Part shown: positions 11,241 through 64,000 of the stretch, piece after piece
How the letters are laid out: each line of letters begins with the position of its first letter
Position numbering within the stretch: position 1 is the stretch's first letter
Assembly (NCBI GenBank): GCA_973895155.1
Contig: OZ316891.1
Coordinates: forward strand, 27,905,145 to 27,969,144
DNA from: Marsupella aquatica
Lineage: Eukaryota; Plantae; Marchantiophyta
DNA length: 64,000 nt
Direction of reading: 5' to 3'
Made by a program: the position numbers and the translations under genes
The notes under the pieces: model-generated
The model's database searches: none
What the model saw: only the letters and a program-made list of their open reading frames with translations
Told to the model about the DNA's origin: nothing

Positions 11241-11253
11241 TTTTCTACTAGTG

Positions 11254-13395: not shown

Positions 13396-13555
13396 TATAT
13401 GCTCTTCTTCACTCCTAGTAATAGGCTACGACTTAGTTCTGGTTTGCTCTAGTTAGAGAGAGGAAACCATGTTGGTTTTCATCCAGAACTTCCCGCTGAG
13501 GAATCATATAGGTTAGCAGTATTACCCTCCCCTAGACCAGAGTCAAGGGGGAGAT

Positions 13556-14488: not shown

Positions 14489-14788
14489 CCCAGGTCCTCA
14501 CTTATTTTCTTCAGACCCATCACACGCAAATAAGTATAGGGTTTTTTTATTGAGTTTAGTGAAATATTTTTAAATTTTTGTTGAAGAACATTAGGGTTTA
14601 GGGATCCAATTTTGAGAATTGTAAGAATCATAGGGTTTTTTAAAATCAAATTTGAGAATATTCTTGGAATATTCCATTAAGTTAGGGGTAAAAAATTCAT
14701 AAAAGAACTTTATTGACTTAATTTGTAGGGTGTTTATTCCCCCAAAACTTTGCGCTTGATATGGGACACACCTCGGATTGAGGCTTGC
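14489..14788. mobile_element. Degenerate MITE related to the 30424-30720 element
   Basis: Shares internal blocks (agaacattaggg...atccaattt..gagaatattc..gaatattcc) and a similar length. Ends are degenerate and no TSD was verified. Confidence 0.45.
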
Positions 14789-19599: not shown

Positions 19600-21783
19600 T
19601 CACACCTTCTTAAGCCAATGACATCAAATGTTAGTTTATCTAGTACGTGAGTCCTTCGTTCTTTAACATACACGGAAGATAGTGATGGAAAGAAATTTTT
19701 AATTAATAGAAAACTTCATAGGCTAGCTATTATTTCGTGCAACTTAGTTGACCGCGCGCAAAGAATTATGCTTGATGTACTCAGAATGTGGTTGTGTTGG
19801 TGGCAAGACATCGATCAGTCAAAATTTGATATAGCCACGCACGAGAAGCTTCCGAATATCAGTACAGTTAGAGTCAACCTTGCTTACGAACCAGTACTAG
19901 CTGTCCGCAAGTGAGGGTAAACCCTAAAATATGCATTCTAGGCTAATTAATCTATTAGGACTAGAGCCATTTCAAGATTAAACCTACGGAATTTGATTTC
20001 GAAGCCCCTTAGTGAGGCAAGGATGTACTATACTAAGGAATAGGAGGGTGTAACTTACGTGATTCTTGACTAGATGAAAAAACATGCGCAAATGTGACTG
20101 ATGCCCCTGTTTGAGCAAATAGATTTAACATTGATCGACAATATATATGACTGTGATTCAGAAGAAACTTGTGCCTTGCAAGAACCAATACGTCTCGAAC
20201 GTAGCAAAGAAAGGTGAAGTACCTCGCCTTGAAATGTCAGGCCGGGAATTCAAACCATCAGAAGGAAGCTAGGTCTGATCGTGCGAACTTATTCGATCTG
20301 AGTAAGAAAGGACTGATGTTCTGTCGGCAGTAAAGATGCGATGAGCACTTGAAAAAAGTTCTCTAGCTTGACAGTGGCATTCGATCCGGAACAATTTCTC
20401 TAGCTTGACAGTGGCATTCCAGATCCTAATTGTTCCGTTGAAGGCCCTGGAGGCCCAAGGGATGTTTAGGACTTAGAGCTACGTACGGTTGCTCTGATGA
20501 GAATGGGGATTCTTGTTATTGTCATAGATGGGTAGTAAGGGACTACAGTCTTCAGCGCATATAGCGTATGCTCAACTTCAACTATACGCAGGGACTTGAA
20601 CTTGAAGATGGAAGAGGCACAGACGACAAGGGTAACCAGGTAATGTAGAAAGGTCCTCCACTCTTCTATAGATAAACTATGCTAATACTCCAAATCATCC
20701 ATTTAAAACTAGAGTAGCATGGGCTCATACTTTGTTCAAGTATTAATGTCAGCATTGTGGCCGTAAAATTCGATACTATAAAGGAAATGAAGTATGTTAA
20801 TTACGTAGTGAAGACTAGCCACAGTGATGCAGACGATCGCAATTAATGTTACAATAAAAGTTTTTTGCAACAGTGAAATATATATATATCAAATCTCCAT
20901 GCATTCAACAGCTATGTTTCTTTGATAAGAAGAGTCAGAAACGGATTTAGGACGTTTCTATACACAAAAGAGTGAAATCATTGCCCGAGTCGTTTAAAAA
21001 TGTGATGAGAGCAATATGTAAAAGGTAGAGGAACCGCGTGGCGTTAATTTGTCCCAGTGCCTTATCGAGGTTTAATGAGTAACTGGTTGATGTCGGACTA
21101 CAACTTTCTCGAGGAGATATTGAGGCAAGCGGACGCTGCCAAGCCACTACCATTTCGGCTGGCTGGTGGTGGCAAGAGTGAGGTAATCTTACTTAATTAA
21201 CTGGTAGACCCACACACTAGGGAATTTTGTCTGTACCGGAATTTTGTCTGTACACTCTGGGCACCGTTCAATCAAACAAAACTTACATTCCCCCTCAGGC
21301 TCCCACTGAAGTTTCATCTCTGCCGTTGTACCCAATAGATGGGTTCTTTTAGATGAGTGGAGGAATTGAGAGATGAACAATGACTACAGCAGGAGGCTGG
21401 AGTGCTGGCTGGAGTGGTGGATGTAGTTAACACTAGCTGACTATTGACAGGTAGGTTATTGTGCAGCATTTTGGATTGGAGAAGAGTGGAGTGCAGGACG
21501 TAGATAGCTAGCGCGCACTGACTATTGACAACGTACTAGGGCGAGTGGAGCAGAAGTTACTTAAGAGCTAGTACATAGAGGACCTACTCCAGTATTGCTA
21601 ATGCAAAAACGTACAGTTTGGTGTTCTTGTTCTCCAGCTCTACAACCGCTACCTCGCTCCTCCAAACTTTTCTGAAGATTTGAGACCTCTCCTAGCTGCG
21701 AACAACTTTGCTCAGAACGGAGACACTCTGACAACTATCTTTTCCGCAGTAGGACAAGCTGCACTCATAAACGAGTGGGAAAC

Positions 21784-22221
21784 ATGGATACTTCATGCGC
21801 TTCTCGGCTACTGTCAGACAGTTCGTTGGAGCGCAATGGAACGAGGGTTGACAGGTCTAGCGGAGCGTGCACTGCGAAGACAGGTGTCTTTGCCGCTTGC
21901 CGAATTTGTCGTGACGAGGACGACCTCACAAATCTGGATACTCCATGCTATTGCGCTGGTACGATAAAGTACGTCCATCGCAAATGTCTCCAGGATTGGT
22001 GTGATGCGAAAGGAAATAAGGTCTGCGAGATCTGCCAACACCGTTACAAAGATGGTCACAAAGCTTGTCCTCCATCTAGTCTTCAACAGGAGGCCAACCT
22101 TGACGAAGACGCCCAAATTCCCAATTTATTGGCCGAAATATGGGCTCGACTGGACGCTGCCCATGCGGCTGGTGTTGCCCAACTACAAGCCTACACTGCC
22201 CAACGGCAGGTGGGTCGGTAA
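21784..22221 (+). CDS. Intronless RING-CH (RINGv) protein, copy 2 (upstream part frameshifted, may be a pseudogene)
   Basis: CRICRDEDDLTNLDTPCYCAGTIKYVHRKCLQDWCDAKGNKVCEICQHRY. About 0.9 kb including upstream sequence (~21250-22080) is homologous to ~16250-17160. Confidence 0.78.
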   Translation: MDTSCASRLLSDSSLERNGTRVDRSSGACTAKTGVFAACRICRDEDDLTNLDTPCYCAGTIKYVHRKCLQDWCDAKGNKVCEICQHRYKDGHKACPPSSLQQEANLDEDAQIPNLLAEIWARLDAAHAAGVAQLQAYTAQRQVGR

Positions 22222-26383: not shown

Positions 26384-27555
26384 ATGTCCTCTTCCTCTGA
26401 ACTATCCAGTAGTGAGTACTCCTCCGATGACGATATACCCCCTCCTCCTCAGCCCGAGGTTACTGGTCCTCGTGGTCCACCCCGAAGACTTTGTGACTGC
26501 GCCAGATGTGTGGGCCAAATTTCTCAAAAATCTTATGTGTGTGCTCAACATATTGAGAGATATGGACGTCATAGAGGTCTTACTCCCGGGGCTTCTTCAT
26601 CCCATATGGTAAGTTTGTTTCAATTGATTGCCGTTCTTTACTGTTATTTTTAGAGGTGAATCAATGTTTACACATATGGTTTACACATTTGGTTGTTTGT
26701 GGGTGTTTGCATGGAATAGGGATCCAGTATGCGTAGATTGGTGACACCACCACCCTATGTCCCATCACAAGGAGTTTTAGATGCTATAGGCAATGCACTT
26801 TCACAAGCCTTGGGTTTGGGAATTAGTACCAGTCATGGGACAGAAGGGGAACACCCTCATGTGCCCACTAAGACACGAAGACCCCGGTCCAGGCCCCAAT
26901 CCAACAGGAGGCCACGAGCACCCAATGACCCATCCAGAACACTAGTTCAGGGTAGGTGGGGTGTTTGTTCATTCACTGGCAAGTGTGCCTCTATCATCAA
27001 GGATTGGGAACCTATCACTCTTGGCTTGCCTTATTTTACAGATTTTGATGAGGAGATTGTGGTTTGGGGTAGACGTTGGATTGTGAAAACTTCCACACTT
27101 GGAGAGAGACATGGATATGGAGTATTTGCTTGTGAGGATATTATCATGGATGAGGAGGCCAGGGTGGGTCAAGTGTTCGTGGTAGAGAGGGTCCTACTTT
27201 GTTCCCATACGGTGGACCCATCTACAAGAGAAGACATTGGAACATGATCCTTGCACAACATCCTGAGTGGAAAACATATGCTCTAGAGATGGATACTTTT
27301 GATGGTAGCACTAGAAGGTATAGTGAGCAGCGGGTGATAGATGGTGATCCCATACGTAATGGGAATATTGCTGGTTTCATAAATAGTACTGTGGGGACTC
27401 GGCCCAAGCGTAGGGCCAATTGTGAGTGGGTTTTTACTGATGGTCCAATGCCGGCACCATATGGCACGACATATCATAAGGACCATTGCTTAGTTCTTGC
27501 TACTAGGACCATTAGAGCAGGAGATGAGTTATTCACACACTATGAGTGGGATTAG
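26384..27555 (+). CDS. Zn-finger exon (26384-26608) spliced to a SET-domain exon (26720-27555); one frameshift near 27170
   Basis: Exon 1 has CDCARC...HIERYGRH (CACTA transposase-associated finger). SET motifs are VKTS...GYGVFACEDI, FPYGG, GNIAGFINS, NCEW and ATRTIRAGDELFTHY. Phase-0 GT-AG junction. Confidence 0.8.
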
Positions 27556-32391: not shown

Positions 32392-35286
32392 TTAGCCGGC
32401 CATTAGGGATGCTACCCACTCCACATGGTGCGGGATGGGGTACTTGTACACCCTGAGCCACTAGTTATGCCACTTGGCCTCCACAACACATTTTAAAACA
32501 CACATTTTGCATCATGGAAGGGCATCACCCAACTTTGGGCAAAACACTCCCAACTTGTATGACTTTGGAGTCATTTGCCCAAAGGGGTGCAAACCATTCT
32601 AATTTGGTCATTTGCAAGGGATCTTGAGTCATTTGTGCAGTTGACTAAAAGTTTTTGTCATTTGTGGAGTGCCGAGGGGTGTCATTTAAGCAAATGACAC
32701 AAAAATAAGTCATTGATGATGTCAATGCGGCAGTCAAGCATGCCATGGACAATATGACTCCTTGGCATCGTTGGGGGCTTATTCGCAATATACGTGATCG
32801 TAGCCGGCCATTAGGGATGCTACCCACTCCACATGGTGCGGGATGGGGTACTTGTACACCCTGAGCCACTAGTTGTGCCACTTGGCCTCCACAACACTTT
32901 TTAAAATACACATTTTGCATCATGGAATGACATCACCCAACTTTGGGCAAAACACTCCCAAGTTGTATGACTTTGGAGTCATTTGCCCAAAGGGGTGCAA
33001 ATCATTCTAATTTGGTCATTTGCAAGGGATCTTGAGTCATTTGTGCGTGTGACTAAAGGTTTTTGTCATTTGTGGAGTGCCGAGGGGTGTCATTTAAGCA
33101 AATGAAACAAAAATAAGTCATTGATGATGTCAATGCGGCAGTCAAGCATGCCATGGACAATATGACTCCTTGGGGTCGTTGGGGGCTTATTCGCAATATC
33201 TGTGATTGCAGCTGGCCATTAGGGATGCTACCCACTCCACATGGTGCGGGATGGGGTACTTGTACACCCTGAGCCACTAGTTGTGCCACTTGGCCTCCAC
33301 AACACTTTTTAAAATACACATTTTGCATCATGGAATGGCATCACCCAACTTTGGGCAAAACACTCCCAAGTTGTATGACTTTGGAGTCATTTGCCCAAAG
33401 GGGTGCAAATCATTCTAATTTGGTCATTTGCAAGGGATCTTGAGTCATTTGTGCGTGTGACTAAAGGTTTTTGTCATTTGTGGAGTGCCGAGGGGTGTCA
33501 TTTAAGCAAATGACACAAAAATAAGTCATTGATGATGTCAATGCGGCAGTCAAGCATGCCATGGACAATATGACTCCTTGGGGTCGTTGGGGGCTTATTC
33601 GCAATATCTGTGATTGCAGCTGGCCATTAGGGATGCTACCCACTCCACATGGTGCGGGATGGGGTACTCGGCAACCCTTGGCCACTAGTTATTCCACTTG
33701 GCCTCCACAACACTTTTTAACACACACATTTTGCATCTTGGCAGGGCATCACCCAACTTTGGGCAAAACACTCCCAAGTTGTATGACTTTAGGGTCATTT
33801 GCCCAAAGGGGTGCAAACCACTCGCATTTTGTCATTTGCAAGGGATATAGAGTCATTTGTGCGCTTGACTAAAGGGTTGTGTCATTTGTGGAGTGCGAGG
33901 GGATGTCATATGAGCAAATGACACAACTAGGGGTCATTCATGATGTCAATAGTGCAGTCCTGCATACCAGGGACAATATGACTGCTTGGGGCCTCGGGGG
34001 GCTGATTGGCCATATTGGTGCTGTTAGCCGGCCATCAGGGACGCTACCCACTCCACATGGTGCGGGATAGGGTACTCGGCAACCCTTGGCCACTAGTTAT
34101 TCCACTTGGCCTCCACAACACTTTTTAACACACACATTTTGCATCTTGGCAGGGCATCACCCAACTTTGGGCAAAACACTCCCAAGTTGTATGACTTTAG
34201 GGTCATTTGCCCAAAGGGGTGCAAACCACTCGCATTTTGTCATTTGCAAGGGATATAGAGTCATTTGTGCGCTTGACTAAAGGGTTGTGTCATTTGTGGA
34301 GTGCGAGGGGATGTCATATGAGCAAATGACACAACTAGGGGTCATTCATGATGTCAATAGTGCAGTCCTGCATACCAGGGACAATATGACTGCTTGGGGC
34401 CTCGGGGGGCTGATTGGCCATATTGGTGCTGTTAGCCGGCCATCAGGGACGCTACCCACTCCACATGGTGCGGGATAGGGTACTCGGCAACCCTTGGCCA
34501 CTAGTTATTCCACTTGGCCTCCACAACACTTTTTAACACACACATTTTGCATCTTGGCAGGGCATCACCCAACTTTGGGCAAAACACTCCCAAGTTGTAT
34601 GACTTTAGGGTCATTTGCCCAAAGGGGTGCAAACCACTCGCATTTTGTCATTTGCAAGGGATATAGAGTCATTTGTGCGCTTGACTAAAGGGTTGTGTCA
34701 TTTGTGGAGTGCGAGGGGATGTCATATGAGCAAATGACACAACTAGGGGTCATTCATGATGTCAATAGTGCAGTCCTGCATACCAGGGACAATATGACTG
34801 CTTGGGGCCTCGGGGGGCTGATTGGCCATATTGGTGCTGTTAGCCGGCCATCAGGGACGCTACCCACTCCACATGGTGCGGGATAGGGTACTCGGCAACC
34901 CTTGGCCACTAGTTATTCCACTTGGCCTCCACAACACTTTTTAACACACACATTTTGCATCTTGGCAGGGCATCACCCAACTTTGGGCAAAACACTCCCA
35001 AGTTGTATGACTTTAGGGTCATTTGCCCAAAGGGGTGCAAACCACTCGCATTTTGTCATTTGCAAGGGATATAGAGTCATTTGTGCGCTTGACTAAAGGG
35101 TTGTGTCATTTGTGGAGTGCGAGGGCATGTCATATGAGCAAATGACACAACTAGGGGTCATTCATGATGTCAATAGTGCAGTCCTGCATACCAGGGACAA
35201 TATGACTTCTTGGGGCCTTGGGGGGCTGATTGGCCATATTGGTGCTGTTAACGGACCATTAGGGATGGTACCCACTCCACATGGTA
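32392..35286. repeat. 408-bp tandem array, about 7 units, two sequence subtypes
   Basis: The anchor gctacccactccacatggtgcggga recurs every 408 bp (ORF track offsets 32645/33053/33461 and 33879/34287/34695/35103). The later units are near-identical. Confidence 0.95.
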
Positions 35287-47949: not shown

Positions 47950-48485
47950 ATTTTGCGAAACATCTTGCAAAACCCCTACACCCGCAAACTCATCGCTACA
48001 TTTGCGATACTTAACTGCTCCCTAATTGCCATCATCCCCTCATCGCAAACTTCCGAAGATACCACCATCTCAAAGTTGCGAAACCAAAACATTCACAAAA
48101 TGAGACCCTAGACAGGCACAGGATTTGCGAGCCTATTACTATTGCAAGTTAGCCATATATTCCACAAACATCGCTCATTTGCGAGACAATAAGACTCGCA
48201 AAATATTTTGAGATGCTTAAATATTCGCAACCATTTAGTTTTCCGGCGCATCTCAATGAATTTGCGAAGCGGTAAAGATCGCTAACTTGTTCAATGGTAA
48301 TTGCTTCGGAAATGTTTTGCGATACCTGAAGTGTCGTAAAATGTTGCGATGGTCTAAGTTTCGCAATTATGTGTTGCGATGTGTGTAGATTCGCTAAGTG
48401 CGATGCGTATCGTATCGCAAGTTTAGCGATGAGATTAATCTTGCAAAGCTTTCTTCCTCTTGTAAAATGCCTTCGCAAAATTGGC
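47950..48485. repeat. TTGCGA/TCGCAA subterminal motif array of the CACTA end at 48500
   Basis: Many tttgcga/tcgcaa-like motifs in both orientations just inside the terminus. Confidence 0.8.
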
Positions 48486-48500
48486 AAATATGTAGTAGTG

Positions 48501-50240
48501 ATTTTTTACCTTGTCTCTCTTTATGTGCAATAGAGACCACAGTGGAGAGTTAAGAAGAAGATAACATCTAATGTCACTTGCATGGGATAGTTTCTCAAGA
48601 CAAGGCCAAAGAATTGTTAGAAGAAAATTATCTCCACCATTGGCATGCGTGTAGGGCACTGGAAATAGTCCGGTCATGCTTGGGTTGGCAAATGCCTTAA
48701 GGGGGGAGTCATCCACAAGGAGGGTGTTGGTTTCATCATATAGATTTCCAAATCCACTCCATACCACCCAAAAATCCTTCATTAGCACATTTGCCTTTCC
48801 GTTTGTAATGTCACGCCTTTGAATGCCTGTGTCAAAGGCTTCCACCTGTGTGAATACAAACTTAAGTTTCGACCGCTCCTCAGCACTGAACATCATGTTC
48901 AACATTTTCACTGTTTGATGTACCCCAGCACATGTCCAAATTGCAATGTCAAATCGGTCAAAAACCAACTTTAGAAACTCATGGAGCCCTGGCCTTTCTG
49001 TGTACATGCGACTAATTCCATTTTTTCTATCCCAATGCACTCCACTTGGGGTCACAACATTTCTGGATTTGCCCTTGCTTTGGAATTCAACTGAATCCCA
49101 AAGTATTTTGTTAAGATCCAAAATCAGCAATTTGCGCTTGATGGAACAAGGTCTTGGTTCTGCAAGTGCAACAAATACCAATCTTAGAGAAAAAACCACA
49201 TTTGAAGTTTGGATAGAGATCATCTCTGTCAATCCAACACAAGTGGCCAACCACAAAAAAAAACATTTGCATACTGACCGTATTCATTGAGAAACCGTAA
49301 AGAGGAGATGGATATTGATACTCATGCTCTAATTATTGTTAAACTTGAAGTATAATTATACAGACTATATTATATCAAATTGATAAGGTCACATCGCTCA
49401 ATCTAGACCTTGGCCAACAATGAGATCCATATTCATCAATCAAGATATCATCACCGAGTTCTTGTTGGATCTCATAATTGACATCGGAGGTACTCTCCTC
49501 TACCCAATAAGGTGCCTGCAGACCAAACCGGAGTTATCAATCCCAATTCTCCACTTCTATAAGTTGGATCTTTCTTGTGCTTTTTGTACGAGTCATTGTT
49601 CAAAATTGATTGAGCAGCATCCAACGCAACTTCAGTTCCTACATCGGGTCCACTTTTCCACACGTAACATCGACAATCATATTCAAGTGACTTATATCCA
49701 GTTGATCCTACTCTCTTCCCTTTCTTTTTTGAGAGTGGAAGGATAACGGGACTTCTTGATTGTGATCGAACAAACACCAATTTGTCATCAGAAGCGGAAA
49801 AGAGTGTATCAGGACAAATTGAAGCACCTGCCTGGTTGTGGTCGTGGATGCACTTGCTTCATTCACGGGAATGTCAACTACTTGGATGGGCTGTGGTCTC
49901 AATCCCAATGTGTCGAGTTCATTGGACTCACCATGCCTCTCCGCACCTTGATTGAGAAGGTTGTTTGAAGAAAGTTTTTCAAACGTATCAACTTCCATCT
50001 CTTGTCCAGACACTTGTGGATGGAGACCATCTCTATCCAAGTTATCATCATATTGGCCCTCGTTGGGGCCCATGGGGGCAACATTTGTAATTGGTGAACT
50101 GCAAGGTGCAGATCCAACAATCATATCGTCTTCCACAAGGTCAATATTTTCACCCTTGCCAACTCGGTCATCCAAATTCTTCATGTATGCCCCCTCCGAT
50201 GGCCCATCGTCTTTGACTAATTGGTCAGGGGTATGATAGC
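48501..50240 (-). pseudogene. FCP1/NIF (CTD-phosphatase-like, HAD fold) domain gene; last exon ~48501-49158 is cut by the CACTA end, upstream exons approximate
   Basis: KRKLLILDLNKIL...ERPGLHEFLKLVFDRFDIAIWTCA...KDF..VW...NTLLVDDSPLKAFANP...GLFP. The HAD motif I reads DxN. The frame runs into the CACTA terminus at 48500. Confidence 0.8.
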
Positions 50241-50860
50241 CATGACAGAAAACAGAAAACAAAAAACCTGTTACCAGGGGTTTATTTTCTGTTAACAGGG
50301 AAATTGTACCTGTTACCAGTAAGCTTGTCCCTGTTACCAGTTTTGCCTGAACCATAACGTGCATATCCACCACTCTAAGGTGCATATCCACCACTCTAAT
50401 GGCATAATTTTTTGGGGGGCAATAAAGTTTAAAACTAACAATTATTTTGTGCCATCCGATGGATGAAGTGTACTATCAATCCTCCATTGACACAACAATT
50501 TATTGTAGAAGATAAAAAACATGGTATTAGGAGTGTGCCTAAAGAAACATTCATGCAAATCAATCTATTTTCATCGCCAAATAGTGACCCTTAGAGTGGG
50601 ACCCACCATAGCACATGTCAATCGTGGAGTCCAAATCAACCCAATCTAAAGGAGTTGATTAAATGGACCTTGTAACGTCACAAACAAATGACAAATCACA
50701 TCCTCGAGGCTTTGAAGATAGTAGACAATTTAATCAACTTACACATTTTAAATAAAACAAGAGGTCATTCTTCCACAATGCACGTACATAATGAAGCAAT
50801 GAATATCCGGTTTCCTAGAACCAGCGCCCGACGCTAACCAACAAAGTCTCAATAAAACAA

Positions 50861-53800
50861 CTAAAATATCCGTTGGAAAAAGACAAAATAGGGAATAACC
50901 GTTATATTGAACGACGACCTATTGGGCAGTTTCGATCTCTCACATAAGCCATTCAAGTTCTGCCTCTCCAGCACAAGCCTGACTTTGCCTAAAGTCAAAA
51001 TAGGTTGGCTACAAAGAGTCGACTCCTCAATCTCAAGTTTGAAAACATTTATGTACACCGAGTATAGATGTTTGCAAGGCATGTACGACTTGCCACGCGA
51101 ATGTCGGAGGAAGAAGTCTTCACAAGAGCAAGCGGGGAAGATACAGATTTGGACGAAGTATGTGCTTGGTGATCAATGGTTCTCATGGGTTCAAATTCGA
51201 AATTGCTTTCCAAAAGCATTTCCGGTCTGAACATTCCATTCCCCATCCAAACTCATCACTTCTTGTCGTGCAGACTCCATTCGCTTCGTGTGACCCACAG
51301 TGAGATTAGACCGAGGCCTTGAGTTCCTCCCATTCTGACTACCAAGTCGGAGATTCGGCTCCAAAAACCTTATTGTTTCTGGGAACACGTTAACATTTAT
51401 CCTGAGGTCAAAAGCAGATGGCACAGATTGACTCAATCCTGTTGTTCGCGCTAAGACAAGTCCTTGCTCTTCCAGGAATGTAATTTCAGAAGGAGACAGG
51501 CTCGTACCCTTCAGAATAGGCAAAATGTCAAGAAAAGGAGGAAGCTTCTGAACACCACGACGCGGATGACTCTTGTAACACGCTTGGTTCAGGCAAAACC
51601 AAATCATTTCGGAGATGGGTTCGCCCCTGAAGAGACGATGGCCCTTCACGACAATTCCGACAACACCTTCAGACGAATGGAAGCCAACCTTCTTGATACG
51701 ATTTCAACACTCATCGCGATCCGAACTCCCATTTAGTGTACCATTGCATTGCGGACCTGCTCCATACTTCGATGTCCGTCGCAACTGCCACTGCCCCAGA
51801 GGGACATCCTTCTCTAGCACAATTGTGCATGGAAGTTGATTCTGAAGTGCTGCTAGGGCACTGAGCGGAGGTTTTGAGGATCTTGTTGTTCGGGTTGTTT
51901 GAGGAGTATAGTCCAGTGAATCAGTATCACTCTCTGATGTGACCATACCTGAGAGATTCACCGCCTTTGTGACAGGATGATCAAAACTTGAGGGAATAGA
52001 AGAAAAGTCAGTTCTGTTCAGGTTCTTCCTTTTCAAACCACGAGTATTTGGTGTGGTTATTAGAACGGTGTCATGCCGACGGGAATCTTGTGGAGAGACA
52101 GTCCCAGTTGCATGTCCCTTCCTCTTCATTGACTTCATCATTATATCTCCATTCAGGGGAGTACTTCTTTCCAAATCGAATTCTGCTGCGTTAGATAGAA
52201 GCATATTAGTCGCTTCTTCAAACAATCTTGGCGAACCTGCTTGATCGGCGGAACGGAACGCCAATTCCCATATAGTTGGCCCCTTCCCCCGGTTCAAGCC
52301 TTTACGGTATGCACTGTATCCGGCAACTTGAGATAGAGCACGGTTTTGGTCAACTTCGCAAGCTTCATAAAGACCGACCTTTTTCTTTGTAGCCGAGGCT
52401 TTCATGGACGCATGCCTTGATTCTGACCCTGTACAGTTGGGGATCAAGGCACCTTCCTCAACGCTTTTGCTCTGCCATACGAAAATGTCAACCGTAAGTA
52501 GTATTCTATTACCAGCGCCCGGCGCTGGCAACATAAATATGTAGAACAAGCCTGAAATACAATTTCAATGTTTAATACTGAATTCTAACTACATATTGGC
52601 TTCAATTTCTTGTACTACTTATTTTGACGTGTATGGAGAAAATAACCAGCGCCTGGCGCTAATATGAAGTTGATGAACATTACAGTCTAGATAGATGGAT
52701 GCCTTACCACTCGAATAAAATTGCCCCACTGGCGCCAACGAACAACCCACCAAGATATCCAGCTTTGCAGCATCTTCAGCTTTCCGGGGACACAGTTTCC
52801 TGATTGCCACCACACAACAATCTCTCGAGACACCCGGTATGCTGCCACAAATGATGGAGCATTTCTCAGTTTCTCCCAAAGTCTCCGATGCTCCGAATGA
52901 CATTCTTCCAGTACTCCTTCCTTGGAATGACGATGAAAAGATTGATAAAAGTGAAATGCATCAGAGCGCTCCTGTGACGCCAATGACATGGTCCATATTT
53001 TGTAATCTGATTAAGTAGGTTGCTGTATGCAAGGAGTAGCTATTGATATTGCATAACAATTAGCAAGATGGCAAGAATAAGGGCAATCATGGCGTTAAGA
53101 GTAGGGAAATAAAAGCTATGTCGCAGGTGGTCGGCGACCATATCTCTTTCAATATGTCACCAAATCCGGATCTGTAAAGAGCATTGGAAAGATCTGGTCA
53201 AGGCGAGTAAAATCGATATAAAACACTCGGGAAACGGAGGTGTATTAAGAAAGATACGGCCTGATTAGTGTGACGGGTTAACTTGTGGCTGGAATTAGCG
53301 GATTCGGCTTCAGTTTCGGGTTAACCCAAGCTCGACCACGGCTTAGCTTATGTGAGCACGGCTTCAGCTTAGCTCAGGTCAGCACGGCTTCAGCTTAGCT
53401 TAGGTCAGCACGGCTTCAGCTTAGCTCAGGTAAGCATGGCTTCAGCTTAGGCTTAACCTAGGTTCGGATTAGATTGAACTCGGGTTAGCCTAAACTCGGG
53501 CTCAGGTTAGCATAGGTAAGCTCGGGTTTGGGCTCAGCTTAGGCTAGGTTAGCCGAACTAGGGTTAGCTATGTAACTCGGGTTAGCGCAGCAGTGAGTAC
53601 CCCCTCTCGGTTGCGGGGGCATAACTCTCTCTGTATTTGACCAAATCGGCTATAATTGACCTCGTTGGAAAGAGGAGCTCAAGCCGCTTCCAACGCTGTT
53701 ATCCACGCAGCAAATGGTTGAATACAGAAATCGGGAGAGGAGGCGTAAGCTCGCAAAAACAATGGAGGAGGGCCGAATCCGAAGTACATAGCCAATTCGA

Positions 53801-56800
53801 GATAGAAATAAAGTTGCGAGTTAGGGTTCAGTAGTTAGAGATAGTGGCGGCTCTATTAGGGCTGGGATGGGGCTCCAGCAGCGTAGCATCCACCCATTTG
53901 GGCTCAATGAGAGAGTATATAGAGCATCCCTCCGGTAGAGGCAGGGAGGGGACTTCAGTTGTGTGATCTCACTTACTCTGAGCAGCGGGGAGGAGCTCTG
54001 TGCAAGCAAGGCTAGACTTGGACGCTGTGTGTTGGGGAGAGCTTGGTTGTGCTATTACTCAGGGAGTAATCAGCCAAGCTTCACAGCAACGGGTTGCTAG
54101 GTTTGCGAGCTGGATTGTGGCTCTTTCTAGTGGGCAGCACAACTGGGTTCTTTTCCCCCGATATAGAGCCTTGGTGATAGGTGATGTATTGGTGATTGTA
54201 AACTGTGGGGAGGATTTCAATTCGATTTGCGGTGGGCACATTAGGGAGGCTGAGGTACTGATTAAGGGGCAGCAGGAGGAACATTTACAGTTCAGTCTGG
54301 CAAGGCTACGTGACCCATGGGGAGTCCCGGCCTTTGTCTGGTGGAGAGCACTAAGGGATCTATGGCCAGAGCTGAGCTTGCAGGGCAAGCGTGAGGCCGG
54401 ACCTCATTGCAGTCTGGGGTAGATCGCCGTTAGGCCTGGTACCAGCTTTGAAGTCGAGTCAACTATGCATGTGTAACTTGACGTTCTGAATTGGAGGTGT
54501 GAGATCTGTATGTGCCCCCAAGAATGAAGTGCAGTGAAGGAGGTTGAGTTCAGGATTGGGCTTGCAGGGCAAGCACGTCACAATCTGGAGGAGACAGCCT
54601 TCGGCCCTAGTGTTCGGATCAAGTGTTCTCAATGAACTATTGTGCACATCTTTGAATCTAATTGAGTTTTCCTCTCAGGCCTCATTTCTCTCATGGATGT
54701 GTGTGTGTGTGAGGCAATCTGAGTGTATGATGGAACTAGCAGCGCCACTGAGAGGTGTACCGGGTGCATTGAAGCGGGCTGGGTGAGGACTGTCATAGCT
54801 CTGATTGTTGAGAGTGGAATGGCAGAGTGGTGGGGCAATGGCTTAGAAGTCCCTAAGCCGGGAATCAGTCAGGAGTCACTGGTTTATGGGTACATTCCGG
54901 CGGCGGAATAGAAACATACCTATGACAGTAAGCATATGTATAGACCTATGCGCACCGTAGCGCTAGGCCCTGTGTGTACGGGCCCGATATGAAGACCCCT
55001 TCTCACCAGAACTATCATGAGCGCAGATGTGATCCCCAACCTTGGTTCCTTGGGATTGAGCTTGGGTGATGTGTGATAGAGTCTTGCTATGATAGTCTGG
55101 TGTTAAGGGCATAAACTGGTGTTTACCGGCATTCACAACATCCCTTCATGATCCTCAGGTACAAGGAGATGGTTTTGGCACCCATAGTGACGTCTTTGGT
55201 GTTAAGACCCATGTCAATCGCGTGACAGCTCCCTCTCCGGGTCCGAGTGTCCACCAAAAAAAACATTTCGCACTGCATTCCATCCAGCTTGTGCATTGTC
55301 AGCCATAAATCGTTGGATGACAACCTCCTGAAGTTCATTTTCTTTGCAAACCTCAATCATCACCCTCCATGCCTTTTCGAAGGACTCAGTGTCTTCACCT
55401 TTCAACTCGCATGTGAAAATTGTACACAGTGCACGGAAATTGTGGTCGTAGACGTGTGCGCTAAAAGTAAACCAATCCGTGGTGACACGCTGCATCACAT
55501 CGAAACTTACCCAAGCTCCTTCGAGTCTTCCACCCGGTTGCATCTGCCTCAAAAGATCCACACCGGAACCGTGACCTTTCACGGTCATTTTAAAGATGTG
55601 AGGCCTATCGTTCTGACATCCCTGACCTGGAAGCAAATACCTCTAGAGAAACGACACATGAATCCTCCTCTACATTTGCGAGAGAAAATCTAATTCACCC
55701 CGACCTTTTTGGTCTATCCTAACGCTCCGACAAAGAGATGCAAACTTCTGCGGAGTGGAAAGGACCATCAGAGACTTCCATATTTCAGTTTCTTCGATAT
55801 CGACCATGTCGTCAACATGTTCGCAGAGAGATTTCACTAAGGACCCTGTAGCAGAATTCAAGATCCCTGCCGGTTTTGACAGAGGATTGGCTTCATGTTT
55901 TTTTAATTGGATCCTCAGCTATCTTCTCCGCACTCCTACAGAAGGTTTTTCTACCTGGATGGTTGTGCTCACCTATATGAATTGCGAGGCGGGACATATG
56001 ACTACATGTTTCCGCATCAAGTAATACTTGGGGGTACATGTAAAACAAACGGGCAGGGCAGTACTTCACGCAAAAAGGAATCTGTTCGCAGTAATGACAA
56101 ACAACACCTTCCTCTTCGATGAAAGATCCCATAGCATACTGACCATTGAGCTTTGGAGTACCCTGCCATGCCTTAGCATTTGCCTTCTTCTTCCTTTGGA
56201 AATAGTCGCAGGACTTGTTCCTGCATTCAATGAATCCCGTACAGGTAACCTTCCCAAACTGCCAAAGGTTTTTAGGATGAACAGTTGCAGTTGTTGGAAA
56301 TATGCGTGTCCAAATATAACAATCTTTGGCACGATCCATGTCCCTAAGCCTAGAGCCTTTAGAGAGCATCTTATCAATGGGCGGCAACTCAAACACGACG
56401 TTACCATTGTACTTAGTTGGCAGACAGGACACTTGTTCATGCCTGAAATCACTTGCTAATATGAACCGTGACAACTCACTATGACCAGTTGATTTGAGTA
56501 ACGTATCCATCGCACTGCGCCGGTACACGACCTCCAACTGCTTAGAGCTTCCCGGAGTCTCAGCTTTCACGACAGCAGGGAGCTCAAAAATATGAATATT
56601 TTTGGATATTTCTATTAATACTTACTCTTTCTATCATTCTAATTTTCTCAATCTCAAAATTGATAACCCCTGAAAATAAAGGACCAGAAAAATGGACCAC
56701 TTATGAATCAGGCATAGAACCTACGAAAGGCGCTCGTATCCAATTTCAAATTAACCTAAGTCAATATTTAATTTTTTCGGAAAACTTTGGGATTGTTTAA

Positions 56801-57249
56801 TATTATAAACACACAGAACCATCTTATTAATGTTCGGGATGGATTGGTGTGGTTCCTCCATGCCTGAGACACCAGAATATCAACCCATAAACAGAAAGGG
56901 GGGGCATGTCCAAAAAAGTATCCTGAAAGAACCTCTTATACCCTGCCCCTTTCTTCTTCGACGGTGGACTTAGAGTACGATCTCCATCCTCACTTGAAGA
57001 AATCTCAACCACATCACATGGAACCAGCGGGAAACTGGACAGTCCTGCATACTGTCTTAAATGAACCGAGTACGAGATCCCTGCGTAGAGATGCCAAAAC
57101 CGTTCACCATCATCGACATTGAACGTTGCAGCATCCTCGATATCATCAATGGATTCGAGCTCTCGAACAATGGCCTCAATGTCATTCATCTTCAAATCAA
57201 ATCTCCCGCAGAGATACCTCTCCTAGACCTGTTTGTACGTATCTTCCAT
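50861..57249 (-). pseudogene. MULE/MuDR-like transposase: GCM/WRKY-like Zn finger, DDE domain and C-terminal SWIM finger; several nonsense codons; split by a solo LTR
   Basis: CTGFIEC..C...CHYC...CPAR...HIGEHNHP. Catalytic WVSFD, FMADNAQAGWNAVRNVF, DPERE|RSDAFHF (rejoined across the LTR) and NCTGSESRHASMK. SWIM YFVQI..FPACSCEDF...PCKHLYSV. An in-frame intron lies at 52472-52707. Confidence 0.85.
52973..55227. mobile_element. Solo LTR (2255 bp, probably Ty3/gypsy-type) with a 5-bp TSD
   Basis: TGTGACGCCAATGACATGG...CCATGTCAATCGCGTGACA, with GCTCC at 52968-52972 and 55228-55232. Excision restores the transposase frame. Internal ~25-bp tandem gcacggcttcagcttagctcaggtca at ~53355-53450. Confidence 0.9.
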
Positions 57250-58276
57250 GGGGACGGGGATAGTCACAATATCTTCAGGACCGAATCGAGAAAGAACGAT
57301 AGACCGAGACATGGTGAACAAAAACAAAAACCGAGGGCTATAGCGTTTGAAAGAAGAAAAGTTCATGGTATTGTTCAGCTTATATCTGTCGAACCTGGGA
57401 ATTTGACGTTAACCGATCCGTTTGTATACGACATAAAACATAGACGATGGAGGATCCGTTGGCACCATAAATGATTTTTGTCATTTTTTCCCTGAGAAGT
57501 CCGGATGTCAGACATGAACATATTGCTAAAAAGATCACCAACCTTACTTAAACAGACCATAAGATATGACAAGGTATTGTCAAATTTTAGTAGCGCCTGG
57601 CGCTAACTAAAATACGCCACTAAAAATGTGTCTGAAATCTTGACATTCCAAACTAGCGCCCGGCGCTAGTATAGAATAAATTCCCTGAAAATGAACATTA
57701 TGACCACATACCAGGTGGTAATTGGGAATAAATGGTGCCTTCAAAGGATGGTTTTGATTGATTATGGATGATAAATGAACATTTATACTAGCGCCGGGCG
57801 CTAGTATTACATTTGAGAAATATTTCTCCGTAAACGATGTACTGAAGGATACTTTAATAAAATATGGGGGTGGAAAGGCCAAAATTTATGTCATAGCTCC
57901 TTCAAAAAAGACCTCTAAATTTCTTCCAGTTTATACTAGCGTCGGGCGCTATTATAAGCATACTCTAAATTGTTCACCTTGATGGTCATCATTAATGCTA
58001 GCGCTCGGCGCTAGTATTGATATGATGTTAGGAAATGTCTTTAACGGTAACATTCAACGGTAACTTATGACTTCCGTGTGTGTTACGCATCTTCTACCAT
58101 TTGATTTTGGTAATTAAACCTTCCGAATACAGACGTTGGAAACCGCCAAACATCAGAGCTAATGGCTTTCCTCTAGGTTATGTCATCCTCCCGCTAGAAT
58201 ATATTACACGTTCAGAGATGATTATAGTTCCATAATTTCATTGTACGATAGTTCGTACGCTTCTAGAAGGAAGACG
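57250..58276. promoter_or_regulatory. Putative bidirectional promoter between the transposase and the ParB-MTase gene, with five palindromes
   Basis: Divergent ATGs at 57249 (-) and 58277 (+). Palindromes at 57592, 57655, 57790, 57938 and 58000. Confidence 0.6.
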
Positions 58277-61200
58277 ATGGAGGTATTCCCCTCTTCTTCC
58301 AAAGGGTATAGTGCGGTTCCTGACCAGGAGCGAGCTTATTCTGAATCTTCGCAGTCTTCGTTTACTGGTTCAGTCTATACACGTCGTGTAACTCGTTCCT
58401 CAAAGTTGTTGCCGCTCACTTCTGTCAGCGGTGTTTTGGGTCCAAATCCTTTGCGAAGAAAGATGGACAACGTAGACACAATTGCGATCCAGGATGTTGC
58501 GGATTGCGCGCTTGTTGAGACTGATCTCATTTCGAAACATGTCATGTCTTTTGGAAAGGATTCTCGTGGATTTGACAAGGAGCCGCCTTGAATCCCTCTG
58601 TGTTGATTGGTTCACATGGAGGTGGTTCATACTCTGTAGAAAGACAGCTCTTCCATCGAGAAGCTGAAAGACTCTTTTCGTAGTATGGGTTACAACTCTT
58701 CGATAGGGATGCGTTTCTATGTGCAGCCAACGGATGAGAATGGAATTGTTCTGACCTGTACCCAGGACATTCGTGATTCATGGGATCCAATATGGCAATT
58801 GGAGAACGAGAAGTTTGAGGCTGAATGCGAGGCTGACCCGGATTTTCTCGTCTTGAAGGATAAGATGTTCTTTGTATTCGATGGAAATCACAGGCTGTAC
58901 TCCTGGACACTTGTAACAGAGGAGAACCCGGACAATCCAAAATATCATCCTCGTGTGCTCTGTACAATATTTAAAGGAGACAAGGGATCTCTCATTGAAA
59001 TTGAGGCAGCTATGCACACCGTGAATCAGTAAGTTCTCATGATTTCCAGTTCTTTCCTTAAATCTTGCGAGTGCTGTATTTACTAGCGCTCGGCGCTGCT
59101 TATACATGAATTGTTTTTCATTGACTCTTACTCTCAACGTTTGTTCGTGTAGGCTTGGCCAAGCAGTTGTAGAGCCTTGGATCCTGGATGCGAACAGAAT
59201 CAAACGAATTCTGGCGTATGACCTTGAGTATTACAATAAACTGATTGACCCGGGTAATTTCAAGAAGTTTGAAAGCATTCGGCTGAAAACTCGGAAGGGG
59301 TCATGGTATACGAAGAAGATGCCACAAGAAGCACTTGCTTACATTCTTTGTGAGAATAAGATAAAGTCGTACTCGCATCAATTCAAACTCGACATGGAGG
59401 CAGCGGAGGCTCAAGGGAGTCCATGGTCGGCGCACGAGATTTCAAAACGGCATGCGGCCATGATGAAAGATGCAACCAAAGATTGGGCAGTGAAGTCTTC
59501 AAAAATTATGCCCTTATTAAGTCCTGAATTTGAAGATTTCCTCAGTTTATGTGCAGAAATGTATGCTGTCACAGAGAGAAACAAGAGAGAGAAGAAGCCT
59601 GACACCGTTGTATGTACGATGGACCGCGCACGATTGTTCACCGCTGTTTCTGCTCTAGACCCGAAGTTACGAAGCACTTTACTTGTGGCACATTGCAATC
59701 CTGAGCTGCGGAGACAGTTTTTTCACCCAGCAAGTGTTAACGATGATCCAGTCAAACAGTGGTGCCACACTTGGATCACTTGGAATAGTGTGGAGGGAAT
59801 TGCTGCTGGCATGTTACATTCATGTCTACGTGAAGTTGAGCAAACCATGCCCGCAATTAGATTGGAAGAGTGGAATTGTAGTTCGTTTGATGATCTAGTT
59901 CAGTTTGTTACAAATGAATTCAAGAGATTTGGTGATTCCATGAAGAATAAGTTCTTTCACACTATGTGGCCTTCAAAGTACCCTGACAAAGAAGATTACA
60001 CCCAGAGAAACCAGAAGCGAGCGAAGAGGTTTGTGTATAGGTTCTACATGCACATGGAGGTAACCAAACCTGATTACTTCTGGGCATATCCTGCAGCTTT
60101 TATGAAGTGGATTTCAATAAGTGAAGATGATGCCTTGGCTGATTTGTACTCTATGTACCCCACGGAGGGCATATTTCCTCCGAGACCAATGACAGAATGG
60201 GAGAGAACTCACTGCCCCTGGTATCTAGATACAGATAGATGGGATTCTCCTTTTGATCAAAGGGAAAAAGATGCCTTCCATAAGCTTTCAAAGTCTCAGA
60301 TGCCAGCAAAACTTGTGTCCGACATGAAGCAGGGTCTACTTGACGATGTAGACAAGTCTGCCACAAACTTGCAAACTATCTGTCAAACAACTGTTGTGCA
60401 TGTGGACCGCAGTCGCAAACCTCGCGCGAAAGCCAAAGCGGAGCTAGCAGCACCGAGCGAGTCTACTAAATCTGGAAAGAAGAGTAAGTATTGCTATCCA
60501 TGATTTTGCCAGCGCCAGGCGCTGGCAAAAAATATTCTGTTGAGGGTATTCTCTTTCTTGGTTATTAGGCTTCGGTTGCGACTTAAGTGAATTGCATTTG
60601 GTTAGCGCCAGGCGCTAGCTTCTTTCAATACTTTAAAAGTACTTATTCTAACTACGACCTGGTTATATTTTAGGAGGGAGGAAGTCTAATACGGTGGGAA
60701 CGGGAGATACGAAAAAGGATGCTACACCTGAAGTTTCCGAGGCAAACACGGGAGCTCGATCGGACCCCATTACTCCAGTCAACAAAGGGAAGGTTATAGT
60801 TCCTATCGACGCCACGAGTACCAGGAAGAAACGAAAGAGAGCTGTCGAAGGTGGACAATCTTTAAGGGAGAGTGTTATAGCTTCTGGTTTCCAACGTGAA
60901 GTTGGAAACTTCAAAACAACTGTGTCTCGCCATTGCATGGTTGAGACAAGCCTTTCTGAATTTTTTGACTCGACTTTCAACAAGGAGGAGAAGCCCGAGT
61001 GGGTTAGTGATGTGGAGAAATGGGGAAAAGACCTCGTTAAGTTGGGATTTAAAGAGAAGGGAGTTGTTTGGGGGGGAAAAGTAAGATCGTTTGGAGTGGA
61101 TGCCGGCTTCATTTACCTACCGATCGGGTTCAAACCATCTATCATTGATAAGAAGGTTCCTAAATGGAACATTCCAGATCACTCAATGGCTAGATCTTTT

Positions 61201-62363
61201 TTCAAATCCATGGATCCATTTTTATCAGATGATGGGTTCCTTGTAATTCTACACAATGGGGAGTACGATCCCATGTCGCAAGTCATTGCTGCCTGTCAGG
61301 AGTCAAGGAAATTTCAGTGTATATGCTTGCATAATGTTGTGATGTCTGACCCGATGTATGCGGCAAAGACAGACCGAGAGATGTTTACCCTCAGGCTCGA
61401 CATATTTGGCCGAATTAATGGGAAATGTAAAATTCCCAAAGACCCCAAATTTTGGCCGCTGTCCATCAGTGAGGACCCTTCGGTTACCAATTTGATCGAA
61501 CTCTCTTCGCTCAAATCAGATCCATTCCCGCAAATGGAGTTTGCTAGAAATGCTCGTCTGTCTGTGGGTTTTATGCAATCTGTTATAGAGCTTGTCACAC
61601 GGCCTCGTGATATTTTTATGGATTGGACTGCTGGGGCTGGAGGCTCTTACATTGCTGGCGACTTCTCTGGACGATTTGTACTCGGGATAGAACACCGGAA
61701 AGAATTTATTGAAACCGCTTCAAAGGTTTTCATGGATTTGTTGTCTCCCAAAGAGATTGCAGTGTTACCTCCACCTGTTCCTACTGCCGACAGAAAAAAA
61801 AAGATAAGCTTCGGTCGGTTCTCAATTTTGATGCTGATGATGAATCGAGTGAAGGTGGAGAGGAACAAGGTACAAGAAACTCCGAGGAGGAAAAGGGAGA
61901 GCGTCGTGCAGCTGCAGATGAAACCGATAGTGATGACTCTTCCGAGTAATGTTCATAAACTCGTAAGCTTCTTTCTCCATTCCCGTCAATTCATAACATT
62001 TCTTTTGTTGTTTTGGGGAAAGGCGCCTTACAAAATGGACTTTGTTATATCAGGTCAGAGTGGAATGCAAGGAGATGATTCAAACTACAGAGGAAGATCG
62101 CGAGACACAACGTAGAAACACCGGAAAAACCATTTGTTCTTCCCTCCTATGCAGAGAAAGCCGCAAGGAAAGCAGAAAGTGCAAGGACACTTTGCTGGGA
62201 AAACAAAGGTCTTCGGTTACGAAGGGGTGTTGACTGAAAGTTCATTAAACATCCTTATGTTGATGACTTCTCCCGCAGCCAGTACGTAGATGATGAGGCT
62301 GTGTCCACGGACAGATCCCAGAGTACAGATTCTGGTTCCGACTTAGAATCTTCGGAACCGTGA
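58277..62363 (+). pseudogene. ParB/sulfiredoxin-like domain plus beta-class N4C/N6A DNA-methyltransferase-like fusion gene (exons 58277-59028, 59153-60483, 60674-~61945; 3' end approximate); three premature stops in exon 1
   Basis: ParB-like IPLC*LVHMEVV.TL*...IEKLKDSF.SMGY...FFVFDGNHRLYSW. MTase-like VDAGFIYLPIG (motif IV position) followed by LSVGFMQSVIELVTRPRDIFMDWTAGAGGSYIAGDFSGRFVLGIE (motifs X-I-II). Both GT-AG introns keep the frame. Confidence 0.78.
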
Positions 62364-62689
62364 GAAGTAGTGGGTAGTTGAGGCTAAATCTTTTAGCAGC
62401 GCCCGACGCTTGTAACATCTGTATTATTTCCCTCTGTTGAGGGTCCTTTTAAATTGTTGATTTCTCTCTACTTGTTGATTACTTTTGACTTCTGTTCTTT
62501 ACAAGCGCCTGGCGCTCGCCAAATGGAATCTCTAAATGGCCGTTTAGTCTTTGTTGTTTCCTGTCAACGGTCATCATCATTGGATACCAACTGCCATTTG
62601 GATTGTGTTCTTTAGTCAGTCGTCGGAAAACCGTTGGGGACCATAGTTTCCGGACGATGATTCCATAGTTTAGGGACTGGGTGGAAGGG

Positions 62690-63000
62690 ACGACTATAGT
62701 TTCAGTTTAGGTTTGTTCGGGACGATGAGAGTTGGGGACGTCGATAGTTGAGGACGACGATAGTTTCGGGAGGATGATAGAACGGGACAATAGAACGGGA
62801 CGATAGAACGGGAGGGGAGACTTTGTTTCGGGATGATGATAGAACGTGACGATAGAACGGGACGATACTTCGTTTGGGAAGACTTTGTTTCGGGAATATG
62901 ATAGAACGGGATGTTAGAGCAGGGTGATAGAATGGGACGATACCTGTTACCAAGGTGAAGATAGTTTCGGGAGGCAATAGAACGGGACGATGATAGTTTG
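62690..63000. repeat. Short degenerate tandem repeats GATAGAACGGGAC / GACGATAGTTT
   Basis: At least 7 atagaa(c/t)g(g/t)ga units plus a duplicated gactttgtttcggga. Confidence 0.8.
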
Positions 63001-63148
63001 ATGGTCGTTTCGAAACGGTAGTGTACGCGGACCTTTATCTGGCGTCTTAGTCTTCGCGGACCTTTCTTTGACCTTTGTCGGCTATAGCACTCGCGGACGA
63101 CGTTCTTATGGGAGGAGAGGTTACATATTAGATCAGGATCTTTGAAAC

Positions 63149-63610
63149 ATGGCGAGTCAATATGAGCCAATGGATTGGGAGGCAACTTTTCGTCCTTCTC
63201 GTGTGCGTCCGGAAGAGAGCCATTTCAGCTCTTTTGAATCGCGGATGGAGACTGAAGAAACTGAAACTTCCACTTTTCGGAACCGTCATGCTCTCCCGTA
63301 TGATGAGGCTATTAGTCCTGGAGAGAAGAACATCCCTTGGATTGTCGATTCCCCTGCGCCTCCGTTCTCTAGTCGGTTTTCATCTCACCCGGGAGTTCTT
63401 GTTGATGGGGTACTCCCAATCGATCGAAGAGTACAAGAAATGTTCGGGCGAGTTGATTTTAAGGACAGTAATATTCCTAATGAACATTTTATGAGGGCTG
63501 TTCGTCGAGGACCTTCAGAGGGATACGTTCGTTTGCGTGGTCTCGGCTTCAAGAAAGATCGGCGGAGAGAAGCAACAGGAGTGGATGATGATTGCAACTC
63601 GGAAAGCTAG
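63149..63610 (+). CDS. Hypothetical 153-aa protein, probable accessory gene of the MULE unit
   Basis: Open ATG-initiated frame with protein-like composition, flanked on both sides by palindromes. No recognisable domain. Confidence 0.45.
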   Translation: MASQYEPMDWEATFRPSRVRPEESHFSSFESRMETEETETSTFRNRHALPYDEAISPGEKNIPWIVDSPAPPFSSRFSSHPGVLVDGVLPIDRRVQEMFGRVDFKDSNIPNEHFMRAVRRGPSEGYVRLRGLGFKKDRRREATGVDDDCNSES

Positions 63611-64000
63611 ATGGAAATTTTGTTTTGCTGATCGCTTTAAGCTAGCGCCGGGCGCTGCTAAAGTTTTCCGGATTTTGTGGCATTGAAGTCGACCTCAGCT
63701 CTGGCGTTAGGGTTTTCCCGATTGTCTACTATTTAGGTTTTGGCTAGCGCCGGGCGCTATTGAAACGACAACGGATTTTGTGGGAGGGAATGGATCTTGA
63801 CTATGTTGTCTGGGTTTGGACGCATCTTGTCTCCAAGAAACGACTAGTTTTCTAGTTAGTTTTTGGCTAGCGCCGAGCGCTGTTCATGTATTAGTCAAAA
63901 ACCTCCGACGGTGTCGACCGTGACTTCATGGATGGGATTTTTAGGCCAGATTGTTGATGTTGATAACTGCATTTTGTATCACTTAAGTCGAGCGCGTTTT

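Follow-up and report, generated by a model that had tools for sequence, protein, structure and literature searches.

A decayed Mutator-like transposon of Marsupella aquatica carrying a ParB-like/methyltransferase-like accessory gene and sixteen dispersed palindromes

The DNA analysed here, called the window throughout, is a stretch of 64,000 nucleotides from Marsupella aquatica (Marchantiophyta; assembly GCA_973895155.1, contig OZ316891.1, positions 27,905,145 to 27,969,144). Its right-hand part belongs, with little room for doubt, to a Mutator-like DNA transposon that is repetitive and of which this copy has decayed; it bears an accessory gene with ParB-like and methyltransferase-like parts, together with 16 dispersed copies of one palindrome. 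The transposase gene on the minus strand (ATG at 57,312) and the fusion gene on the plus strand (ATG at 58,277) stand head to head, confirming the divergent arrangement described in an earlier note that was made from the letters of this DNA alone. The copy is broken by stops, frameshifts, a solo long terminal repeat (LTR) and an organellar insert, and it is dead. The element extends beyond the right edge of the window; within the window no terminal repeat was found between its left flank and its right part, and an Rfam search of 50,000-64,000 returned no match. Mutator elements are typified by terminal inverted repeats and target duplications of 8-11 bp. The element's features are as follows, ORF denoting an open reading frame.

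50823..50835, no strand: leftmost palindrome, just past the transposase stop
50861..57312, minus: predicted Mutator-like DDE transposase gene, broken, with its stop near 50,861; recognised from relatives, the fold of a relative, and motifs
52472..52707, minus: transposase intron with two palindromes (52,514; 52,648); GT-AG ends, and predicted proteins of relatives stop at the same place
52973..55227, no strand: solo LTR of 2,255 bp, TG...CA, with a 5-bp target duplication GCTCC, recognised from its sequence; inserted in the transposase core
56585..56950, plus: insert with an organellar ndhC/nad3-like fragment, limits approximate (Pfam Oxidored_q4, E 5.8e-7)
57313..58276, no strand: spacer between the divergent genes, holding five palindromes (57,592; 57,655; 57,790; 57,938; 58,000)
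58277..59028, plus: accessory exon 1, low-complexity start and ParB/Srx-like domain (DGNHR), with in-frame stops at 58,589, 58,604 and 58,637
59029..59152, plus: accessory intron 1 with one palindrome (59,085); predicted, phase-compatible GT-AG
59153..60483, plus: accessory exon 2, 443 codons, open, of no known family (no Pfam match)
60484..60673, plus: accessory intron 2 with two palindromes (60,511; 60,604); predicted, phase-compatible GT-AG
60674..61945, plus: accessory exon 3, beta-class amino-methyltransferase-like domain and acidic tail (Pfam, ESM, family profile)
62054..62362, plus: possible last accessory exon, charged, with stops, uncertain (GT at 61,946, AG at 62,053-62,060, frame reading); no family match
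62398..62516, no strand: two palindromes (62,398; 62,504) downstream of the accessory gene
63149..63610, plus: third ORF (153 aa) of no assigned kind; no Pfam match
63644..63881, no strand: three palindromes (63,644; 63,746; 63,869) after the third ORF

The palindrome, YAGCGCCNGGCGCTR, occurs sixteen times between 50,823 and 63,881, and the earlier note's statement that these copies lie in non-coding DNA holds: none of the 16 touches coding sequence, although under the predicted exon model only 28% of the element is non-coding and 72% is coding (P about 1e-9). The transposase intron has two copies, the spacer five, the accessory-gene introns three and the downstream regions six, at spacings of 62-4,944 bp, indicating a dispersed set with no tandem array. 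Searching all 64 kb with AGCGCYNRGCGCT gave 13 exact matches and 17 at one mismatch, against shuffled expectations of 0.01 and 0.08, respectively. One of the 17, at 54,959, falls within the solo LTR and is a different sequence, and the other 16 are those counted in the earlier note; allowing two mismatches added no further copies, and positions 1-50,822 of the window contain none. The palindrome arms have kept their CpGs in 32 of 32 half-sites, each of the six deviations is a C-to-T change at the first C of CCG, and the centre is A or T in five of the 16 copies; the Fisher P values for these patterns (2e-4 and 3e-3) were calculated post hoc from copies that are not independent. The flanks of the core pair no more than shuffled sequence does (P 0.24-0.90), and a hairpin role was ruled out because neither arms nor flanks co-vary. 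The palindrome therefore looks like a site in duplex DNA at which a protein would bind. Three viral contigs match the 17-bp palindrome, once each, and are regarded as unrelated.

Translation of the minus-strand gene predicts an N-terminal ubiquitin-like domain, a Cys/His zinc-binding region ending in HNHP, a D..D..DAFH..ES.H core, and a SWIM-like CxC..CxH end, seen as CSC..CKH. Thirteen of 51 candidates are relatives of this transposase, with local identities of 54-87%; the D, D and DxxH positions are conserved among them, the Cys/His region is another of their conserved features, and the one that is named belongs to Calypogeia fissa, a leafy liverwort (56% identity). DAFH, DCFH, DTFH or DSFH is present in the window transposase and in 11 of the 13 relatives, the remaining two ending earlier. 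A [C/D]xxH after the second Asp and a SWIM finger are motifs that mark Mutator transposases (those of Mutator-like elements, MULEs). The Pfam families MULE and SWIM do not match the transposase, its profile has no match among PDB sequences, and its alignment has none among viral contigs. A model of relative P0003 (22-row alignment, mean predicted local distance difference test score, pLDDT, of 67) agrees, by its structural matches, with the RNase H-like DDE core with helical insertion expected of IS256/Mutator transposases, and has an N-terminus that a second aligner finds to be ubiquitin-like (Z 9.0). The four top Foldseek matches of this model are ISCth4 (E 1.6e-5 to 2.3e-3), followed by Hermes; VIA-align, the second aligner, gave integrase-like cores and Hermes but did not list ISCth4 in its 50 rows. 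We take ISCth4 to be a member of the IS256/Mutator family. Because ISCth4 is the top fold match and the DAFH, ES.H and CxC..CxH motifs are present, the transposase is classed as Mutator-like, an assignment that depends in part on the modelled fold of a relative.

Other copies of the element help to separate what belongs to it from what has been inserted. Contigs from such copies connect 52,967 to 55,228 across the solo LTR, over which the summed depth is about tenfold higher; the LTR is thus outside the transposase/accessory system. The organellar insert in the 5' part of the transposase gene coincides with a gap in the tblastn alignment of relatives, has 30% GC, and shows loose ends at 56,585, 56,752 and 56,954. 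At the transposase stops at 57,225 and 51,706 most or all of the depth, where there is coverage, carries sense codons. Five sequencing runs from three organisms contain the stretch, four of the five with at least half of its words, and in the four runs compared all 30 bins are covered. Summed contig depth is similar over transposase and accessory exons, at about 6,000-12,000 in run X2 and 7,000-16,000 in run X4, and single divergent contigs have depths of 40-150. Depth summed over contigs does not measure copy number, and the window itself may come from one of the runs; the depths show only that both genes are repetitive, which they are in the related sequencing runs.

In the predicted splicing of the accessory gene, the coding sequence, once two phase-compatible introns are removed, counts 1,067 codons before a frameshift near 61,793, at an A-run in exon 3 where other copies have one extra A. 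The ParB-like assignment of exon 1 draws on several distant resemblances. In the ESM Atlas it scores 0.95 to unnamed bacterial/phage clusters, 0.94 to DUF3723 and 0.93 to a cluster in which 11% of the members have ParB_N, the nearest named sets being DUF3723, ParB_N and DUF6551; its DGNHR has the form of the GxxR (Box II) motif of the ParB/Srx fold. A PHROG match to ParB-like proteins is weak (E 0.27), and the domain has no match in Pfam or among PDB sequences. Exon 2 has a weak PHROG match (E 0.018) to a family of unknown function, no homologue among proteins of 775-2,210 aa in a word-index search, which is weak evidence, and no match in metagenome contigs; this exon may be the DNA-reading region of the protein.

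The methyltransferase-like domain in exon 3 is more readily recognised, by Pfam N6_N4_Mtase (E 8.4e-4), by ESM (0.95), and by a family profile that matches DpnA-type 5hek (E 2.5e-8) and CcrM (E 4.9e-8). Its motifs run in the order IV...X-I-II and include an S-adenosylmethionine (SAM)-binding motif, as in the beta class of PF01555, and the relative P0058 covers profile positions 2-212 of 221. An HMMER search found 87 proteins, of which 86 were aligned; one 1,598-aa bacterial-type methylase was left out by length, and the aligned rows include at least one false match, the repeat protein P0071. The register of motif IV was set against a DPPF protein and a phage DLPF protein. A [DNS]PP[YF] sequence at motif IV is needed for catalysis. 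In the window motif IV is eroded to YLPI (61,114-61,125), and the SAM motif DWTAGAG is intact. Among the 42 relatives that cover motif IV, none has [DNS]PP[YFW], none has an aromatic residue at position 4, and 40 have Pro at the third position; motif IV begins with D or S in ten rows, and the six with D belong to a more distant subgroup. The closest relative, P0014 (64%), has YLPT, the evidence on motif IV in other copies of the exact family being from protein relatives alone and not from reads. Because the consensus in the relatives, xLPT, is conserved and does not resemble random decay, loss of the catalytic motif is taken to be old. The SAM motif, by comparison, has its D in 48, its first G in 39 and its last G in 44 of 53 rows. 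A non-canonical motif IV in all 42 relatives alongside a retained SAM site makes the writing of N4-methylcytosine (4mC) or N6-methyladenine (6mA) unlikely, and on these residues the methylase is probably a dead pseudo-enzyme, so that the earlier note's proposal that the protein deposits a mark other than 5-methylcytosine is contradicted.

Many of these relatives appear to belong to eukaryotes. Twenty-one of the 87 matches end at query residues 152-164 and 17 begin at 160-178, breaks that suggest an intron in many relatives and hence eukaryotic genes. The methyltransferase alignment has no close relative in viral and prokaryotic contigs, a word-index search (weak evidence) found no longer proteins resembling the exon, and phage matches reach only 21-42%, over parts. 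A single-sequence fold of the domain (pLDDT 37) was not used.

Four of 160 metagenome stretches encode transposase relatives, and among these the intron is covered in locus L004 alone. Protein identity between the exon pieces of L004 and the window transposase is 46-65%, with no blastn similarity to the window, and the 317-bp intron of this locus lies at the same position and aligns to the window intron no better than shuffled sequence does (-78 vs -79 +/- 7). In this intron there are three TAGYGCYGGCGCTA palindromes, whose half-site is that of the window and whose centre is shorter by one base (chance 0.003); the window contains no such 12-bp form. The L004 copies share 26-bp flanks, and at 1,172-1,231 of that locus one palindrome is lengthened into a perfect inverted repeat of 29 bp, which hints at a way in which sites may multiply. 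The other three loci, L005-L007, have no palindrome cluster, and little non-coding DNA is covered in them.

The ratio of observed to expected (o/e) CpG at codon junctions is 0.57 in the accessory gene, 0.78 in the transposase and 0.79 in L004, compared with 0.12, 0.19 and 0.15 in the CACTA elements and 0.40 in Copia. Such low loss of CpG would fit an element that arrived recently, or one that has over a long time partly escaped methylation. The in-frame stops include CAG-to-TAG and CGA-to-TGA changes, which accompany the C-to-T changes at CCG in the palindromes.

The reading that we prefer, tentatively and at somewhat less than an even chance, is that the accessory protein binds the palindromes without methylating DNA, marks its own element, and keeps that element less methylated and transposable. 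It is favoured because all 16 palindromes are non-coding, as are the VANC21 sites of Arabidopsis VANDAL transposons in introns, intergenic and terminal regions; because the half-site is kept in the otherwise unalignable L004 intron; because little CpG has been lost from the two genes and from L004; because the summed depths of the two genes are similar; and because the ParB/methylase pairing recurs in algal transposons. Arm CpGs kept in 32 of 32 half-sites also favour it, flanks free of hairpin-like co-variation fit a double-stranded protein site, and family-wide loss of motif IV with a kept SAM motif argues for a non-catalytic role. The protein would bind the palindromes as a dimer, and its ParB fold may act as a nucleotide switch to bridge or spread between them. 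Bound in this way, it would hinder host methylation of its own element, by analogy with VANC, and the outcome would be anti-silencing, such that the element stays transposable. Of the self-recognition module put forward in the earlier note, the anatomy is supported, and so is the notion that the element has a recognition motif of its own, on the placement of the sites and the L004 half-site, whereas its mark-writing arm is not. A broader version of this account, which we consider doubtful, is that early land plants have a second, independent transposon anti-silencing system in which a phage-derived ParB-fold clamp with a dead methyltransferase would load at family-specific palindromes, spread, and shield its own Mutator element from methylation of CG and CHG by the host; the spacing of the sites and the protein would evolve together from one subfamily to the next.

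Several observations weigh against binding and shielding by the accessory protein. Pfam and PHROG find no helix-turn-helix, dimerisation or other DNA-reading domain in it, nor a ParA partner, and beyond the GxxR motif nothing supports ParB-like CTP-dependent loading and spreading. None of the listed contig pieces spans both transposase and accessory gene. Locus L004 is only 2 kb, and the link there is of palindrome to transposase. Another relative, L005, shows no cluster of palindromes in 280 bp of upstream sequence and is more CpG-depleted (o/e 0.36). The high CpG content could reflect recent arrival and not escape, and the CCG and stop-codon C-to-T changes show that element sequences have been methylated at some time.

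Some of these points suit a different binder. The transposase could itself bind the palindromes through its zinc-binding N-terminal region, as internal transposase sites, while the accessory gene does something else; the conserved Cys/His region is compatible with this, the only cross-family link seen, in L004, is of palindrome to transposase, and AtMu1 is reported to need no protein but its transposase for binding to the element and for demethylating it (bioRxiv 10.64898/2026.08.24.746577). We nevertheless regard it as unlikely, given that AtMu1 peaks at terminal repeats whereas the sites here are internal and densest around the accessory gene, and that red-algal ParB-like genes have inverted-repeat arrays beside an unrelated transposase. 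Slightly less credence is given to the possibility that the accessory protein binds the palindromes for transposition itself, by joining ends, compaction or tethering, and not for anti-silencing. ParB-fold proteins bind nucleoside triphosphates and many are DNA clamps (PMC12704722), MURB helps MuDR insertion by binding the transposase (PMC12973397), and the methylation-type decay of palindromic Cs agrees with such a role, which however leaves both the low CpG loss across coding sequence and the kept methylase-like domain unexplained.

An active enzyme that writes 4mC or 6mA on its own element is very unlikely: the catalytic position is occupied by Y, A, F, S or C in the window and in close relatives, and the fourth residue is aromatic in 0 of 42, even though the SAM-binding motifs are strongly conserved, a distant subgroup keeps the first Asp (DPPT, DLPS, DMPT; 6 of 42), a phage relative has DLPF, and active horizontally acquired N4C (4mC-writing) methyltransferases have been described in Marchantia and bdelloids. 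Least probable is a passenger role for the fusion gene, with the palindrome either recognised by a host factor or by the protein that the third ORF encodes, or else spreading as a selfish repeat. The third ORF is indeed uncharacterised, and the 26-bp flanks and 29-bp arms in L004 look like products of local duplication; retention of the half-site in an otherwise unalignable intron, absence of the palindrome from 50 kb of neighbouring DNA, and conservation of the fusion domain across 86 relatives all tell against it. The third ORF is possibly the first exon of another accessory gene. Upstream of it, at 62,763-62,991, are three 62-bp direct repeats made of GATAGAACGGGAC units.

The window is eukaryotic DNA rich in transposons. 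Its remainder contains three regions of CACTA-type transposase, one fragment of Copia, and RING-variant ORFs, two of which (16,812-17,216 and 21,676-22,218) are related to each other. Just upstream of one CACTA transposase lies a SET-domain ORF (27,154-27,552, plus strand; Pfam E 1.6e-5) that recalls SET-carrying transposons, and just upstream of another is an ORF with NSD-like PHD fingers (1,642-2,310, plus strand). A tandem array at 32,459-34,907 has seven copies of one sequence at 408 bp spacing. A NIF/HAD phosphatase-like ORF (48,438-49,283, minus strand; Pfam E 5e-15) was considered as cargo of the Mutator-like element and judged to be in a different one, its segment being CpG-depleted (o/e 0.15) and of higher contig depth; it is probably cargo of another element. 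The fifteen TTGCGA/TCGCAA words at 47,953-48,500, which end at a CACTA-like end (TAGTG at 48,500), are likely the subterminal array of another transposon.

The earlier note knew of no description of this combination; the kind is in fact already published, and the present case is a variant of it. Sola1-1_Ec32 of Ectocarpus encodes a 1,104-aa protein, ParB-like with an N4/N6 methyltransferase, opposite its transposase, for which self-binding and self-modification were proposed (PMC12477816). The element described here resembles it in having the accessory gene on the strand opposite a DDE transposase and a ParB-like, N4/N6 methyltransferase-like protein of about 1,100 aa. The two, compared by description, differ in that the transposase here is of Mutator and not Sola type and the host is a land plant and not a brown alga; the accessible description of Sola1-1_Ec32 mentions neither palindromes nor loss of the catalytic motif, both of which are found here. 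In Bostrychia, the Plavaka genes PAG2/PAG3 have a ParB-like domain, a PF01555 methylase domain and inverted-repeat units, and self-binding was again proposed; their homologues occur in Plavaka and Mutator elements of Chondrus, accessory genes moving between transposon superfamilies (bioRxiv 10.1101/2025.02.11.637652). The present element shares with them both domains and inverted-repeat units on a DNA transposon, whereas in Plavaka ParB is fused to a 2-oxoglutarate (2OG) oxygenase and the methylase to SET, in separate genes, with the repeats in tandem arrays next to PAG3; here there is one fusion, and the repeats are dispersed through introns.

The VANDAL/VANC system of Arabidopsis (PMC5735166) is similar in being a Mutator-like element with an accessory gene and a family-specific motif in non-coding parts. 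VANC motifs occur in introns, intergenic and terminal non-coding DNA and differ between subfamilies, but they are non-palindromic tandem repeats in the same orientation (PMC5735166), whereas here the sites are dispersed palindromes. VANC is, by one account, the sole transposon system for which self-binding and self-modification have been proven (bioRxiv 10.1101/2025.02.11.637652); its function is proven, whereas that of the present accessory protein is one we infer, and Pfam finds no VANC-type domain in this protein, which is ParB/methyltransferase-like instead. Phage fusions of a ParB-CTPase fold with an N6_N4 methyltransferase (PMC12704722, PMC4738411) have the same domain pair and order class and are the likely ultimate source of the accessory gene. 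The liverwort gene differs from them in its introns, its 440-aa middle part of no known family, and its eroded catalytic motif, and the nucleotide preference of a ParB fold is not predicted by sequence (PMC12704722). The literature searched, with most subscription papers outside its reach, yielded no ParB/methylase transposon of a land plant, and the accessible text of PMC4738411, PMC12973397 and PMC6431247 mentions no land-plant case.

If the shielding model is true, sequence-directed demethylation gains a new route, and the element is an example of a DNA clamp from prokaryotes that has been put to a second use, against silencing in eukaryotes. The case offers a defined candidate site, a spacing variant as specificity control, and the prediction that the methylase domain is a pseudo-enzyme, and Marchantia is a transformable model within the same plant group. 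What it adds to the known systems is a land-plant Mutator host, a family-wide putative pseudo-methylase, dispersed intronic sites in a VANDAL-like layout, a natural spacing variant, and an element family that is much less CpG-depleted (0.57-0.78) than the neighbouring CACTA elements (0.12-0.19).

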